From the NCBI GenBank assembly GCA_019744895.1, contig JAIETV010000002.1, positions 6 through 64,005 of the forward strand: a stretch of DNA of 64,000 bases. Reading direction: 5' to 3'. How positions within the stretch are numbered: the first letter of the stretch is position 1; every line of letters starts with the position of its first letter. Below the pieces are notes generated by a model, which did not search any database, was not told the DNA's origin, and saw only the letters and a program-made list of their open reading frames with translations. This stretch comes from Candidatus Babeliaceae bacterium (lineage in GTDB: Bacteria > Babelota > Babeliae > Babelales > Babelaceae). Positions 30,232-36,933 of this stretch are shown in pieces. The position numbers were made by a program, and so were the translations under genes.

Positions 30232-30982
30232 GGTTATTTTCTTTCTTATAAACAGTTTTTTGAAGTTCGTAAAGGATGTTTAGTGCATGCTGCGCGCTCA
30301 GATTTTCGATGATTTTTGAACCAGCAATTATCATAAATGTGCGTGTGGTAGCACACATTTTAAGTGCAATGCAGTCGGTTGAGCAAGTAATTTGTACAGT
30401 TTCATCAAGCTTTATATTTTTCCAATATGCAGCAAGCGATATAATTTTACCAGTCTTTGACGTCGGCGAGCTTGCTATCCATAAAAAAGATTCTTTGGGC
30501 ATAATAAAAGAATCATATAATAGCTCGAGAGTATTCTTTTTTAAATCTGCATGTATCACATGCGTTGCGTTAATAAAAGGCGCTAAATTATCCTGATATT
30601 CAATAATTACATATAGATCATTTTTTTCGTTAAGCCTTACAAGCGCAAACTTTATAAGCTCATCCAGCCAGTGGCTCGTGGCTGTTGTGGTTGTTAGGGG
30701 ATCAAGTCGTTGAGCGGTTACAAACATTTTTTGTAATTTTTGTTCGTTATATATAATCGCAAGCATAAGAACCAAGGGAAAGCAACAGGCGGATAAAAAG
30801 AAAACTGTCTGTAAATCAAAAAAATAAGAAAATATAATTAATACGTGGTAACCATACCACATTTTTAAAAGCTCTTTAGTTTCTTGCGTATACAACCAGT
30901 TATTGATCATATAATAGGCAGTAATGCATAGGGCGATTTCAATACCATCAGATATACTATACAAATAAAGAGTCTCGATCAT
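30182..30982 (-). CDS. CdaA-like membrane protein (diadenylate-cyclase fold, catalytic motifs not recognisable)
   Basis: Three N-terminal TMs. TQETKELLKMW and AIIYNEQKLQKMF parallel CdaA TKAVQLLKG and IIFQPELRRAL. Synteny with the YbbR-like gene and glmM. No DGA or RHR motif is present. Confidence 0.5.
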   Translation of the reverse strand: MIETLYLYSISDGIEIALCITAYYMINNWLYTQETKELLKMWYGYHVLIIFSYFFDLQTVFFLSACCFPLVLMLAIIYNEQKLQKMFVTAQRLDPLTTTTATSHWLDELIKFALVRLNEKNDLYVIIEYQDNLAPFINATHVIHADLKKNTLELLYDSFIMPKESFLWIASSPTSKTGKIISLAAYWKNIKLDETVQITCSTDCIALKMCATTRTFMIIAGSKIIENLSAQHALNILYELQKTVYKKENNHAIKDNFTTYNNTHFS

Positions 30983-31830
30983 AGTATACCCAGTAGTTTC
31001 AGCTCTTTACGTAATTTTCTAAAATCATGATTTTTTACGTGAATAGCTGTAATGCCATAACGGCGGGCAGCATCAACATTTTCTAACTGATCATCTATAA
31101 ATATCCAATTTTCAAGTGGTATTTTATATTTTTCAAAACAAAACTCAAAAATATTTTGTTGTGGCTTCATACGTTTTATTAAGCCCGAAATTACCACATC
31201 ATCCATATTAAAGTAACGTGATAATTCTCTGCCAGCAGGTGATGCTTTAAAATCTTCATATGAAACGCCATCCCAGTTAGAAAGAATTGTCTGTTGGTGT
31301 TTGCCGACAAGCGCTATTTCTTGAACTATTTCCAAAGCTTCTTTTGATGCATAGGTATTACTAATAAGAGCTTCTGGGTTAAACATAGCAGCAACACCAT
31401 TTTTAGCGACACGATACTCAAGATTACTTTTAAAATACCCTGAGCCATACAATTGATCGATTTTTCTATGTATTTTTTTTACAAGCTTTTTAGGATTTAA
31501 AATTTTACCTGCAAGCCACTCATGGAAAATTTTTGGTAGTGGTCGATGAGCCGTATGATAACTTTGTTCATGCGCGGGCCCTTCCTGTTTTCCACCATAT
31601 TCTTCAAGTACATCAAAAAGCAAATTTTGTATTTGATTTTTTTCTGTTGCTACAAAAAAATGGTACCACGCTAGATCTGGTAGCCCTATGTGTGCTGCCA
31701 TACCTAAGTAGCTGACATAGACCAAAGCGTCACCTAAATCCCACAATATTAAATATCTTTTTTCATCGTTTTTTGTATGTATACAAAAAAATAAAGAGAT
31801 TATTGCAATAAAAAGATATTTTTTTACCAT
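30979..31830 (-). CDS. HAD-superfamily-like protein, signal peptide (paralog 1 of 4)
   Basis: MVKKYLFIAIISLFFC signal. LILWDLGDAL (motif I-like), ILSNWDG (motif II), RMKPQ (motif III Lys), FIDDQLENV (motif IV). ATGA overlap with the cdaA-like gene. Confidence 0.65.
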   Translation of the reverse strand: MVKKYLFIAIISLFFCIHTKNDEKRYLILWDLGDALVYVSYLGMAAHIGLPDLAWYHFFVATEKNQIQNLLFDVLEEYGGKQEGPAHEQSYHTAHRPLPKIFHEWLAGKILNPKKLVKKIHRKIDQLYGSGYFKSNLEYRVAKNGVAAMFNPEALISNTYASKEALEIVQEIALVGKHQQTILSNWDGVSYEDFKASPAGRELSRYFNMDDVVISGLIKRMKPQQNIFEFCFEKYKIPLENWIFIDDQLENVDAARRYGITAIHVKNHDFRKLRKELKLLGIL

Positions 31831-32182
31831 TGCGTTTACCTTTGGCAAGATTACTATTAACCAAAGTTTAACTTGCATAAAACTCCAAAATCAAGAATAG
31901 AGCTTGAACCTTATTTAAAAAACGTTGAATTGCATTTTAAAATTTTTTAAATTACTAGATATTTTAAATATATAACTGAAAATTTTAAAATCTCTAAGTA
32001 TGATAAAGTTATTTATAAAGAACGGAATTTAGTTGAGAGACTTTATTTGAGAAAATACAGATCAATTTTGAAGCACTTATGTATCTTGCGAGTTCTTATT
32101 TGTCGCTAATTTAAATGTCGATACTGCCTAGTAATAATTTACTCAGGAAAAACTACATAAGGGGGCACTCACCGTTTTGTTG

Positions 32183-35171: not shown

Positions 35172-36074
35172 TTAATTTAAAATGTTATACTTTTTAAGTT
35201 GTTGCTCAACTTGTTTGACATTTCCGGTAAAATGAATTGTATGTAAGCCACATTCTTGAGCAGTTGCGCAATTAGCACTATCATTGTCTATAAAAATACA
35301 TTTTTCTGGATTAAGCCTGTAAGTATACATTACATAATCAAAGAAAGAAGGGTGAGGTTTATTTAAACCTATATCACCTGAAATCACGATATTCTTTTCA
35401 TCGATATATCGAGTTAGCTTTTGACCACAGGGTGAATGTATAAAAATTTTAAAGGACGCTGCGTCCCAATTTGAAAGAATCATACAAGTATGTTTAGTAT
35501 GATTTATTTTTTCAAGTAACTTATACATCGGTTTAATAAGCGTTTGATAGCAGGCTAATGTTTCAGGTGCAAACATAGCGCGTACTGCCTTACGAATAAG
35601 GCGATATTCTCGTAAACTTATAAAAAAGTCTTCCTGATAAAGCAGATCAATTCCTTCTTCAAGTTCTTGAATAAAAGCATAGGGGTTTTCGTCAAATGCA
35701 CCGGCAAGCCAAAGCGCCATAACATTTGGCAAGCTATAACCACCATTATGCTTACATTTGAACTGTTCAGGGCCTTGTTGCGTACCACCTAATAACTCAA
35801 GGGTCTGGAAAAGACGTGCTTGAATCCTGTCTTTATCAAAATGAGCATCAAAAATAACATACATGGCAGCATCAAACGTGCCAAGTTCGCTTGCAAAAGA
35901 CATTTTGTTTACATCAACAAGTGTACCGCCAAGGTCCCACATTATAGTATAGGTTTCTAAAGACTTGGATTCTTGTTCAGAGATAGAATCGACTGTATAA
36001 GGCGTAAATGTTATCGGTGCTTGTGCAGCAAAAACTGCTACAAGCGACATACATGCTATAAGCAATTTCTTCAT
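35172..36074 (-). CDS. HAD-superfamily-like protein, signal peptide (paralog 3 of 4)
   Basis: ATG at 36074 preceded by GAAGG. MKKLLIACMSLVAVFAAQA signal. IMWDLGGTLVDVN, ILSNWD, LNKPHPSF, FIDNDSAN. Confidence 0.65.
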   Translation of the reverse strand: MKKLLIACMSLVAVFAAQAPITFTPYTVDSISEQESKSLETYTIMWDLGGTLVDVNKMSFASELGTFDAAMYVIFDAHFDKDRIQARLFQTLELLGGTQQGPEQFKCKHNGGYSLPNVMALWLAGAFDENPYAFIQELEEGIDLLYQEDFFISLREYRLIRKAVRAMFAPETLACYQTLIKPMYKLLEKINHTKHTCMILSNWDAASFKIFIHSPCGQKLTRYIDEKNIVISGDIGLNKPHPSFFDYVMYTYRLNPEKCIFIDNDSANCATAQECGLHTIHFTGNVKQVEQQLKKYNILN

Positions 36075-36096
36075 ATAAATAACCTTCACGTTACTT

Positions 36097-36933
36097 TTAT
36101 CTTTTTATCAGGTGTACTGATTTACAGTAATCTTTTCCAGCTGAATAAATGGAATCTGGACTATAAATAGTATGCATACCCACACTTTTTGCAGCCTGTA
36201 TAGCATGTTTATTTGAGCTGATAATTACATACTCGCTAGCTTGAAAGGCGTGATCTTCAATAATTTTTTGATAAAGCCTTGGATCTTCTACAAGCATTTT
36301 ATTATGGCCTGATACATACGTATCATTAAAATGACGTAGCACCCTGCTGCCAGGATTCATAGTTCGTAAATTATCAAACATTTGATTATTGCAATTTGCA
36401 ACCAAAATTAAGCGTGGGTGGATAGGCCCATTTGATATTTTTTCAATCAGTTTTAAGCTATCGCTTTTAACACCAAAAGTTCCAGCCATTCGAGCAGGAT
36501 CAAAAATAATATCAAAGACGCCAAAGATAAATTTTTTCTCGCTACTTCCGCCGGGAAATTTGTAAGCTTGCAATGATTTTTTAATCTCGTTACAAACTTG
36601 GGCTGAATTTTTACCTAAAAGCCAGTTAACAAAAGGTACAGGCAGTTCATCATGCGGTGGCTGCGGATCATAAGCCTTAATAGAATCAGTTTGTGGACCG
36701 TAAAGTGCTTCGAGCGCTTTAAACATGGTAGTTTGTGATTTAAGAGCCGTTGTTAGATTAAAAAGTGAATTCCAAAGGCCTATCTCTGAAACCATGCTGG
36801 TACGGTTACTCTCTAAAACGTCAGAAAATACAAAAATTATGGCCTTAGGCTGTATTATTCCATAAACAGTCTGTGTTTGACATAAAATGCCAAAAAAAGT
36901 GAAAAAAAGGGCTTTTTTGATTGAAATCTTCAT
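36097..36933 (-). CDS. Divergent HAD-like protein, signal peptide (paralog 4 of 4)
   Basis: Signal MKISIKKALFFTFFGILCQTQTVYG. Shares the LPVPFVNWLLGK block (compare LPKIFHEWLAGK, LPKIYCDWMAGK, LPNVMALWLAGA) and the overall length. The catalytic motifs are degraded. Confidence 0.5.
   Translation of the reverse strand: MKISIKKALFFTFFGILCQTQTVYGIIQPKAIIFVFSDVLESNRTSMVSEIGLWNSLFNLTTALKSQTTMFKALEALYGPQTDSIKAYDPQPPHDELPVPFVNWLLGKNSAQVCNEIKKSLQAYKFPGGSSEKKFIFGVFDIIFDPARMAGTFGVKSDSLKLIEKISNGPIHPRLILVANCNNQMFDNLRTMNPGSRVLRHFNDTYVSGHNKMLVEDPRLYQKIIEDHAFQASEYVIISSNKHAIQAAKSVGMHTIYSPDSIYSAGKDYCKSVHLIKR

Follow-up and report, generated by a model that had tools for sequence, protein, structure and literature searches.

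The window, i.e., the whole 64,000-nucleotide stretch of DNA analysed here, comes from a metagenome-assembled genome (MAG) of Candidatus Babeliaceae (Dependentiae/TM6), and carries six consecutive minus-strand genes, four of which encode HAD-like proteins (HAD1 to HAD4) and two of which encode helical-repeat proteins (REP1 and REP2), the latter being candidates for effectors that are lipidated by the host cell. The origin of the array is backed by deposited proteins: REP1 matches K2X90_00735, a hypothetical protein from a Candidatus Babeliaceae MAG, at 100% identity, and the database entry for HAD3 is MBY0109621.1 ('HAD-IA family hydrolase'). In the initial annotation, made from the sequence, the genes were described as two paralogous families, mostly exported, that might form an effector island. 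All six open reading frames (ORFs) are present at the coordinates given below, the sequence blocks that were quoted for them (WDLGGTLVDV, SNWD, NKPxP, FIDN/D, LA.L.LA.A.E..GEAS and LLARK) were found, and the all-against-all BLASTP comparison confirmed both families. Aligned end to end, HAD1, HAD2 and HAD3 share 31–36% pairwise identity (E 1e-34 to 1e-50), and REP1 and REP2 share 25% (E 6e-15); HAD4 is a distant member (21–23% to HAD2 and HAD3, E 1e-5 to 1e-6; no match to HAD1). The start sites of HAD1 (31830) and HAD3 (36074) are additionally backed by orthologue N-termini.

32183..33181, minus strand: REP1, helical/TPR-like protein with leader MIMSILPLLFLCISLHSADS and PPSY motif, its CaaX tail removed by a nonsense codon
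33095..33106, minus strand: PPSY (PPxY/PY motif) of REP1, residues 26-29, directly past the predicted leader
32153..32182, minus strand: relic C-terminal tail of REP1, QQNGE-CPLM-TAG in frame beyond the TGA, with the CaaX-like box at 32156-32167 (DNA and translation)
33243..34211, minus strand: REP2, helical/TPR-like protein with leader MLACIIILLFVVTSIYS and intact CaaX, without PPxY
33246..33257, minus strand: CaaX box of REP2, C-V-L-L, forming the exact C-terminus
30979..31830, minus strand: HAD1, predicted exported YihX-like HAD-IA(v3) phosphatase with leader MVKKYLFIAIISLFFCIHT; motifs D-L-G-D-A, SNWD, MKP and FIDDQLEN
34324..35100, minus strand: HAD2, motifs CDLGGT, SNWD, NKP and FIDNEPVN intact; leaderless in this genome
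35101..35171, minus strand: relic of the HAD2 leader-coding DNA, homologous to the leader codons of locus L014, with ATC in place of the start ATG and an in-frame TAA (DNA alignment and translations)
35172..36074, minus strand: HAD3, predicted exported YihX-like HAD-IA(v3) phosphatase with leader MKKLLIACMSLVAVFAAQA followed by a disordered linker of ~20 residues
36097..36933, minus strand: HAD4, leader-bearing pseudo-HAD

Repeat proteins in the slot between HAD2 and HAD1

The two repeat genes lie between HAD2 and HAD1, at a position that is referred to below as the slot. Relatives of the window were examined as loci of about 20 kb (designated L001, L003 and so on), and the slot proved to be hypervariable among them, with a copy number of the repeat genes from 0 to ~5.

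Window: two copies
L001: two copies
L005: four to five copies
L018: one relative with PPAY, without CaaX
L003: remnants
L017: four unrelated leader-bearing ORFans, HAD2 being absent
L016: nothing
L014 (the closest relative): nothing, the 2.4 kb of the window being replaced by a 166-nt spacer

The two families were initially thought to be interleaved, and this picture is not sustained by the comparison: with the slot empty in L014 and filled by unrelated ORFans in L017, the HAD and repeat families are not obligately coupled. The four-ORFan slot of L017 (4563-6565) marks the position as a general hotspot for exported accessory genes, and the spacer of L014 (3286-3452) contains an unusually GC-rich stretch, CGCGGCTGCGCGCC, compared with ~33–34% GC in the matching region of the window.

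The repeat family is, as judged from database searches, tiny and limited to few Babeliaceae. Exhaustive searching of 1.84e9 representative proteins with HMMER returned only six true members, below which came generic TPR proteins matching one C-terminal unit; word-indexed homologue searches with REP1 and with the repeat-family profile gave self or fragments only, and a narrower metagenome scan gave only the 3.5-kb contig of protein P0020 itself. The earlier label 'TPR/Sel1-like' holds in its first half for the last 60–70 residues and for nothing else in the protein. Positions 244-312 of the family profile match consensus TPR proteins (E 1e-15), and TPR_1 and TPR_14 matches at 1.5e-5 were obtained in three of seven members, so that TPR means here one or two C-terminal units, the first ~200 residues being without any match. 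Membership of the Sel1 group was rejected, as the profile searches contained no Sel1 match. The AlphaFold (AF2) model of REP2 is all-helical, with 14 helices, a modest confidence (pLDDT 64) and disordered tail residues 316-322; Foldseek assigned no specific fold to it and found only weak matches to generic TPR solenoids (E >0.04, TM-score at most 0.33), BamD, PilF, PilW and LbcA among them. The architecture common to the family consists of a Sec leader, a PPxY motif, a helical domain of ~250 residues that ends in the one or two TPR units, a flexible tail and a CaaX box.

A CaaX box at the C-terminus is what eukaryotic farnesyl- and geranylgeranyl-transferases recognize in their substrates; CaaX prenyltransferases are not known from bacteria, nor is any bacterial function of an exact C-terminal C-a-a-X. 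When the box was required to stand at the exact C-terminus, with an aliphatic a2 and with X taken from L/S/M/Q/A/C, it was found at the end of eight of the ten family C-termini (CVLL in REP2, then CVIL, CTIL, CQIL, CVLL, CVIL, CVVS and CTIL), as against 0.65% of the stop contexts in the window, which gives P ~1e-16 if the proteins are treated as independent. REP2 has the sole strict CaaX box among the 79 ORFs of at least 80 amino acids in the window, and among 208 ORFs of the fetched loci the box is confined to family members, bar one ORF in an unrelated high-GC contig. The box lies in the disordered tail of the REP2 model, and its final Leu points to a putative substrate of the geranylgeranyl type. 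REP1 is without CaaX; its relic CPLM box follows in frame after the TGA, and by this reading of the DNA the tail is cut off by a single nonsense codon.

The second motif of the family, PPxY, occurs eight times in the 171 genes of the window and the Dependentiae loci (52,166 residues), where about three occurrences would be expected by composition, and all eight are in slot proteins, at residues 25-47. The variants PPSY, PPAY, PPDY and PPPY were seen, in most members including REP1, just past the leader. The region of REP2 equivalent to the PPSY of REP1 is likewise disordered in the model, but REP2 does not have the motif; the two features are therefore split in the window, REP2 having CaaX without PPxY and REP1 having PPSY without its CaaX tail. 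Two more leader-bearing ORFs with PPxY just past the leader (PPPSY and APPSY) stand beside P0020 in L013 (1971-2852 and 2883-3392); one of them ends ...WMAHIFG, like L005_303, and the other has a Cys-rich tail, CCCPCMFCGLTCYILFCCKDK. They imply that the exported proteins marked by PY motifs form a larger set in the clade.

Leaders were scored by a home-made heuristic of hydrophobicity and charge (n-h-c organization, small residues at -3/-1, no further transmembrane segment), and by it leaders are predicted on HAD1, HAD3, HAD4, REP1 and REP2, the proteins on which signal peptides were noted initially. The same heuristic gave leaders to 13 of 61 genes across the window, and the leaders of the array proteins are conserved in orthologues. 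A bacterial lipoprotein signal ([LVI][ASTVI][GAS]C lipobox) was considered and rejected, since on inspection of the N-termini no Cys was conserved there among orthologues. The database form of REP2 (P0018) has 268 amino acids and starts from Met55, so the predicted leader is left out of the gene call and automated annotation would miss the exported nature of the protein. Signal peptides are found in 44% of the coding sequences of Chromulinavorax (PMC6561590); as they are so common in the phylum, the leaders by themselves lend little support to the effector interpretation that was initially drawn from them.

The conserved frame of HAD genes

The HAD genes belong to a frame, X-HAD4-HAD3-HAD2-[slot]-HAD1-cdaA-like-ORF-glmM-DUF502 (X being a neighbour gene described below), which recurs, whole or as far as the contig reaches, in at least eight related contigs (L001, L003, L005, L014, L015, L016, L017 and L018; one of them from a complete chromosome, and L017 without HAD2). 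HAD1 to HAD3 are about as similar to their orthologues in L001 and L003 as housekeeping proteins are, HAD1 itself being 78–79% identical in both. The ratio of nonsynonymous to synonymous substitution rates (dN/dS) was calculated by the Nei-Gojobori method against the closest relative, L014 (HAD3 89% identical), which was chosen because synonymous sites between paralogues were expected to be saturated; dS is unsaturated in the HAD2 and HAD3 comparisons.

HAD1-3, identity to L001/L003 orthologues: 65–79%
GlmM, identity to L001/L003 orthologues: 75–76%
NifU, identity to L001/L003 orthologues: 70–75%
HAD3 against L014: dN/dS 0.078, dS 0.66
HAD2 against L014: dN/dS 0.110, dS 0.85
X (neighbour gene) against L014: dN/dS 0.34, dS 0.53

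By these estimates HAD2 and HAD3 are under strong purifying selection, and HAD1 to HAD3 behave like core genes. Distant Dependentiae, including the isolate Noda2021, have one homologue of ~27% identity in which the leader is already present, and in a neighbour-joining tree these single copies enclose one clade made up of the four paralogue groups; a single clade inside leader-bearing single copies implies that the duplications are old and took place within Babeliaceae, from an exported ancestor. Two initial proposals are not supported by these results. A tandem expansion of effectors is at odds with HAD1 to HAD3 being old duplicates, syntenic in at least eight genomes, as conserved as GlmM and NifU and with dN/dS of 0.08–0.11, and a cytoplasmic family recruited for export is at odds with the leader found in every orthologue group and in every single-copy outgroup.

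The leaderless HAD2, which indeed starts at motif I as noted initially, appears to have taken the opposite direction. All six orthologues compared (L001, L003, L005, L014, L015 and L018) have leaders, and the 71 bases upstream of HAD2 in the window align with the leader codons of L014, with the start ATG changed to ATC and a TAA in frame, so that translation now starts from what was an internal Met in the ancestral protein. Because the relic leader DNA persists upstream and the leader is kept in the closest relative, the alignment indicates that the HAD2 leader was lost recently in this genome. In L016 the frame of HAD2 is open upstream, with TTG and GTG as candidate starts, and a second loss there is ambiguous.

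The curated cut-off of TIGR01509 (HAD-IA variant 3), 29.4 bits, is exceeded by HAD1 (37.4 bits), HAD2 (32.3 bits) and HAD3 (49.0 bits), and HAD4 fails it (16.1 bits). The solved structures nearest to the family profile are those of E. coli YihX, Bacteroides BT2542, the drimenol-synthase HAD domain and the phosphatase domain at the N-terminus of soluble epoxide hydrolase (sEH-NTD), and Foldseek returned the same set for the AF2 model of HAD3 (pLDDT 87.7, residues 1-36 disordered), with a probability of 1.00 to C1-cap HAD-IA structures. The model has a Rossmannoid core and a helical C1 cap, whose helices (spanning residues 57-175) separate strand 1 from motif II; in HADs a helical C1 cap goes with small-molecule substrates. 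The nucleophile Asp (motif I), Ser (motif II), Lys (motif III) and Asp (motif IV) are intact in HAD1 to HAD3 and in all single-copy relatives, all of which also have Gly at D+2, a residue that YihX has as well. HAD1 to HAD3 are thus most likely active, exported Mg-dependent small-molecule phosphomonoesterases as far as motifs and fold can tell, and their biochemical class is well supported. Two narrower assignments were tried and rejected: orthology to YihX (NF006991 equivalog, 24.8–33.1 bits against a cut-off of 295) and membership of the class B/C acid phosphatases, for which only PF12689 Acid_PPase at 15.2 bits (cut-off 27) was found in HAD1 and nothing in the other HADs.

In HAD4 the nucleophile Asp is replaced by Val, the motif II Ser by Ala and the motif III Lys by Val, and motif IV reads IISSN. 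Since nucleophile, Lys and motif IV Asp are gone from all tabulated orthologues (four genomes), HAD4 is, to judge from its residues, a conserved pseudoenzyme. It exists in two very divergent types of about 32–37% amino acid identity (window 36097-36933; L001 9151-9972; L003 5544-6374; L014 690-1511), and the distribution of the types conflicts with genome relatedness: the window and L014 share 89% identity in HAD3 and 34% in HAD4, and the HAD4 body has no nucleotide similarity between them, yet its flanks are 80–85% identical. This discordance between conserved flanks suggests cassette replacement or an old polymorphism. Gene X (37025-37858, minus strand), always upstream of HAD4, encodes a protein with a leader, one transmembrane segment, a coiled coil and no family match, and is fast-evolving (~30% identity to L001/L003).

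Among known enzymes, E. coli YihX, an alpha-D-glucose-1-phosphate phosphatase, and Bacteroides BT2542/BT0970 have in common with the HADs the Rossmannoid core with a helical cap after motif I and the motif set Gly at D+2, S-N, K-P and D-D/N-x3-N, and are among the best sequence and fold matches. They are, however, only 14–18% identical in Foldseek alignments, and the HADs score 31–33 bits where the equivalog requires 295. The HADs also differ in a motif I–II span of ~155 residues with a family-specific GGxQEGP...LP insert and in the N-terminal Sec-type leader, YihX being cytoplasmic. The sEH N-terminal phosphatase and the HAD domain of drimenol synthase (motif I DLGDVL) are the top PDB matches by profile (drimenol synthase E 1e-17) and by Foldseek and fall into the same HAD-IA v3 group, but they are domains of bifunctional cytosolic enzymes, whereas the HADs of the window stand alone and are predicted to be exported; with TMq ~0.5 and 16–20% identity, nothing in these matches points to lipid substrates. 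A precedent for periplasmic or outer-membrane HADs that scavenge phosphorylated nutrients is given by the exported class B/C 'DDDD' acid phosphatases AphA and e(P4), which differ in motif and cap type, the HADs of the window having no lipobox and only the sub-threshold 15-bit Acid_PPase match.

Predicted action in the host cell and competing explanations

Sequence analysis gave the two families with their motifs, the synteny, the selection estimates and the loss of the HAD2 leader, and from these we infer a model of export, secretion route, prenylation, WW-domain binding and HAD substrates, in which two layers are distinguished. The first is the conserved Babeliaceae operon frame, whose HADs go back to one YihX-like HAD-IA v3 phosphatase with a C1 cap that was exported already. 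HAD1 to HAD3 would pass through Sec to the periplasm or beyond and there dephosphorylate host-derived phospho-metabolites for uptake or phosphate supply (that they process such compounds for the parasite is a guess), and HAD4 would act as a non-catalytic binding relative. The second layer is the hypervariable slot before HAD1, with its clade-specific leader-PPxY-helical/TPR-CaaX proteins. These would leave the cytoplasm through Sec, be released by the type II secretion system (T2SS) or in vesicles and be delivered to the host cytosol, where geranylgeranyltransferase I or farnesyltransferase of the host would prenylate the CaaX Cys and so anchor the protein on host membranes; PPxY would dock WW-domain ubiquitin ligases of the NEDD4 type and the helical/TPR domain would bind the target, much as an NDFIP-like adaptor does. 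In short, the slot would encode Sec/T2SS-secreted, host-prenylated adaptor effectors within a conserved exported-phosphatase operon, a reading to which we give a probability of about 0.6.

Legionella AnkB, PelC/PelE and Salmonella GtgE resemble the repeat proteins in the exact C-terminal CaaX box, in protein-interaction repeats and in the setting of an intracellular parasite of amoebae (PMC2916131, PMC13081727, PMC13423502). The CaaX box of AnkB anchors the effector on host membranes and is used both in macrophages and in Dictyostelium (PMC2916131); PelC/PelE and GtgE are reported to behave in the same way (PMC13081727, PMC13423502), and an AnkB allele reported to have lost its CaaX by a frameshift (PMC5506055) parallels the loss in REP1. 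These effectors differ in being injected by type IV/III systems without a Sec leader, and the repeat family is unrelated to them in sequence, belongs to another phylum and carries the extra PPxY. With their combination of leader, PPxY, TPR and CaaX, the repeat proteins would be host-lipidated effectors of a new type, the known CaaX effectors relying on type III/IV secretion and lacking a Sec leader. PPxY is the ligand of the WW domains of NEDD4-type ligases, a system that bacterial effectors exploit (PMC12720080, PMC7342019, PMC5768648). With NDFIP1/2, with TMEM127 and Salmonella SteD and with NEDD4L-ubiquitinated Ehrlichia TRP32, the likeness lies in a PPxY on a (predicted) membrane-anchored protein, as used by NDFIP-type adaptors to recruit and activate WW-HECT ligases; it is functional only, as the slot proteins have one PPxY each, a putative prenyl anchor instead of transmembrane helices and no homology. 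Within the phylum, the signal-peptide ankyrin and other repeat proteins of Babela and Chromulinavorax also combine a Sec leader with a eukaryote-style interaction domain and are presumed to be secreted by T2SS; the family described here differs in being TPR-like and limited to few Babeliaceae. Type II is the sole secretion system found in Dependentiae (PMC4378268, PMC4776705), and Chromulinavorax replicates in the host cytoplasm, into which its signal-peptide (ankyrin) proteins are presumed to be secreted (PMC6561590). The literature search returned no paper linking Dependentiae with CaaX, PPxY or prenylation, and the word 'prenyl' does not occur in the Babela paper. Exported HADs are an already noted class in Dependentiae, the secreted hydrolases of Chromulinavorax including yigB-type HAD hydrolases (PMC6561590), so the new part is the leader-PPxY-TPR-CaaX repeat family.

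It may be asked whether the whole array forms one effector island, in which the HADs are secreted too, act in the host on lipid/isoprenoid or sugar phosphates and cooperate with the prenylated repeat proteins. The leaders on all HAD groups, the HAD hydrolases among the secreted hydrolases of Chromulinavorax, the isoprenoid and lipid phosphate phosphatases (sEH-NTD, drimenol-synthase HAD domain) among the nearest structures, the adjacency of HADs and CaaX proteins in several genomes and the nature of HAD4, a fast-evolving dimorphic pseudoenzyme as is typical of host-interaction genes, would all fit. Yet HAD1 to HAD3 evolve like core genes (dN/dS ~0.1, GlmM-like identities) and persist unchanged where the slot is empty (L014, L016) or otherwise filled (L017), the motif scan gave no eukaryotic motifs on the HADs, HAD1 is translationally coupled to envelope-related genes, and YihX, a sugar-phosphate phosphatase, is as near as the lipid phosphatases. 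We therefore regard a single island as unlikely, although it is the strongest of the competitors, and the initial view of the array as an effector or host-interaction island is retained for the helical proteins, which look host-directed by their CaaX, PPxY, clade restriction and copy-number flux, and is not supported for the HADs.

That all six are ordinary periplasmic or envelope proteins, whose C-terminal Cys box and PPxY serve some bacterial purpose or no purpose at all and from which nothing enters the host, we consider improbable. Sec leaders by themselves predict the periplasm only, 21–44% of the genes in such genomes have them, the operon includes glmM, and TPR proteins are common periplasmic assembly factors, with which the weak Foldseek matches to BamD, PilF, PilW and LbcA would agree; but the CaaX box is kept at ~25% overall identity with canonical a2 (V/I/L) and X (L/S/M), for which, as said, no bacterial enzyme or use is known, PPxY is confined to slot proteins at one position, and a family that was found neither in other bacteria (HMMER, representative proteins) nor in the closest relative is unlike an envelope assembly factor. 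A slightly smaller chance still is left to the repeat genes being decaying lineage-specific ORFans that owe CaaX and PPxY to recent common ancestry. This would account for the nonsense codon of REP1, the frameshifted copies in L001 and L005, the remnants in L003, the absence of the cassette from L014 and L016 and the very low identity between copies, but at 24–28% identity to REP2 neutral decay would not keep the C-terminal box in eight of ten proteins or a fixed PPxY, full-length intact copies are present in at least four independent assemblies, and, L001 and L005 carrying MFD isolate names, some of the frameshifts may be sequencing errors if these are long-read assemblies. Only the missing cassette in the closest relative would speak for foreign DNA mis-joined into the MAG by assembly or binning; the GC content of the cassette (0.33–0.34) equals that of its flanks, the leaders are of bacterial type and the spacing is compact, and the same family recurs at the same HAD2-HAD1 position in independent assemblies including a complete chromosome, so that composition and recurrence rule this explanation out for practical purposes.

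Returning to host-prenylated adaptors exported by Sec and T2SS, several observations weigh against this reading. Kinship among the family members means that the CaaX and PPxY statistics overstate their independence, several members are frameshifted or truncated, and the cassette, being absent from the closest relative, is dispensable and could be decaying. The leaders of REP1 and REP2 are devoid of a basic n-region, and the NCBI gene call for REP2 begins at Met55 and thus has no leader. Babela was described inside a vacuole (Babela paper), a lifestyle that would require a further membrane to be crossed. The known CaaX effectors use type III/IV systems, and the Sec/T2SS route to the host cytosol is hypothetical. 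On the side of the operon frame, Gly at D+2 is unlike most HAD phosphatases, and the link between HAD and repeat genes may be mere adjacency. A bolder version, in which the repeat proteins are the first host-prenylated effectors of Dependentiae, the first CaaX effectors to travel by Sec and T2SS and, once geranylgeranylated on host membranes, NDFIP-like adaptors that redirect NEDD4-type ubiquitin ligases of the host by PPxY and TPR domain, and in which the HADs, including HAD4, could share the module, is put forward tentatively, as we would sooner expect part of it to fail than all of it to hold.

Dependentiae are widespread, almost uncultured parasites of protists in which up to 44% of genes have signal peptides (PMC6561590) and arrival of the products in the host cytosol is assumed; the organism of the window is, in agreement with the host-interaction view, an obligate intracellular parasite of this kind. 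As CaaX is without known use outside the eukaryotic cytosol, the leader-CaaX-PPxY family offers a compact, testable reporter of such arrival. If the bolder version is right, it would be the first sequence-anchored proof that signal-peptide proteins of the phylum act in the host cytosol. Host-lipidation mimicry, as seen in injected Legionella and Salmonella effectors, would moreover gain another phylum and another way of export. Of less importance are the HADs, with the conserved operon frame, the conserved pseudoenzyme and the recent leader loss.

Neighbouring genes

HAD1 is the first gene of an operon that runs on into a cdaA-like gene and glmM, and the translational coupling proposed for it at the outset is visible in the DNA.

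30979..30982, minus strand: ATGA overlap, the stop TGA of HAD1 lying on the ATG of the downstream cdaA-like gene, read directly as ...CTATGATCGAG
30182..30982, minus strand: cdaA-like membrane protein (context, outside the paralogue families), coupled to HAD1; a 134-aa ORF, glmM and DUF502 come after it

The order cdaA-like-ORF-glmM-DUF502 is kept in L001, L003, L005, L016, L017 and L018. A scan for promoters and terminators gave promoter-like sites no commoner than in shuffled sequence, and no usable signal. The label 'cdaA-like', taken over from the initial annotation, rests on a partial match of 23.4 bits to the N-terminal part of TIGR00159 (cut-off 188.8) and is weakened accordingly; the gene (30182-30982) has no Pfam DisA_N match, and the cyclase motifs DGA and RHR were not seen by eye. 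It is nevertheless ~66% conserved in relatives, within the constant order cdaA, small ORF, glmM, DUF502 (29827-30231, 28495-29820), and may be a degenerate non-cyclase relative of CdaA.

Outside this operon, the single HAD gene of locus L004, a distant Babeliaceae MAG (GCA_027452105.1), to which HAD3 is the nearest copy, is of the HAD3 type and lies between ftsW and a Mur ligase gene (2195-3073); in its vicinity are Lon, a pair of F-box-like proteins and a pair of TLC (ATP/ADP translocase) genes. Downstream of DUF502 in L016, a 200-aa protein with a weak bZIP_1 match (16482-17084) and a sulfotransferase-like protein (18084-18902) are encoded, both of which are possibly eukaryote-like.

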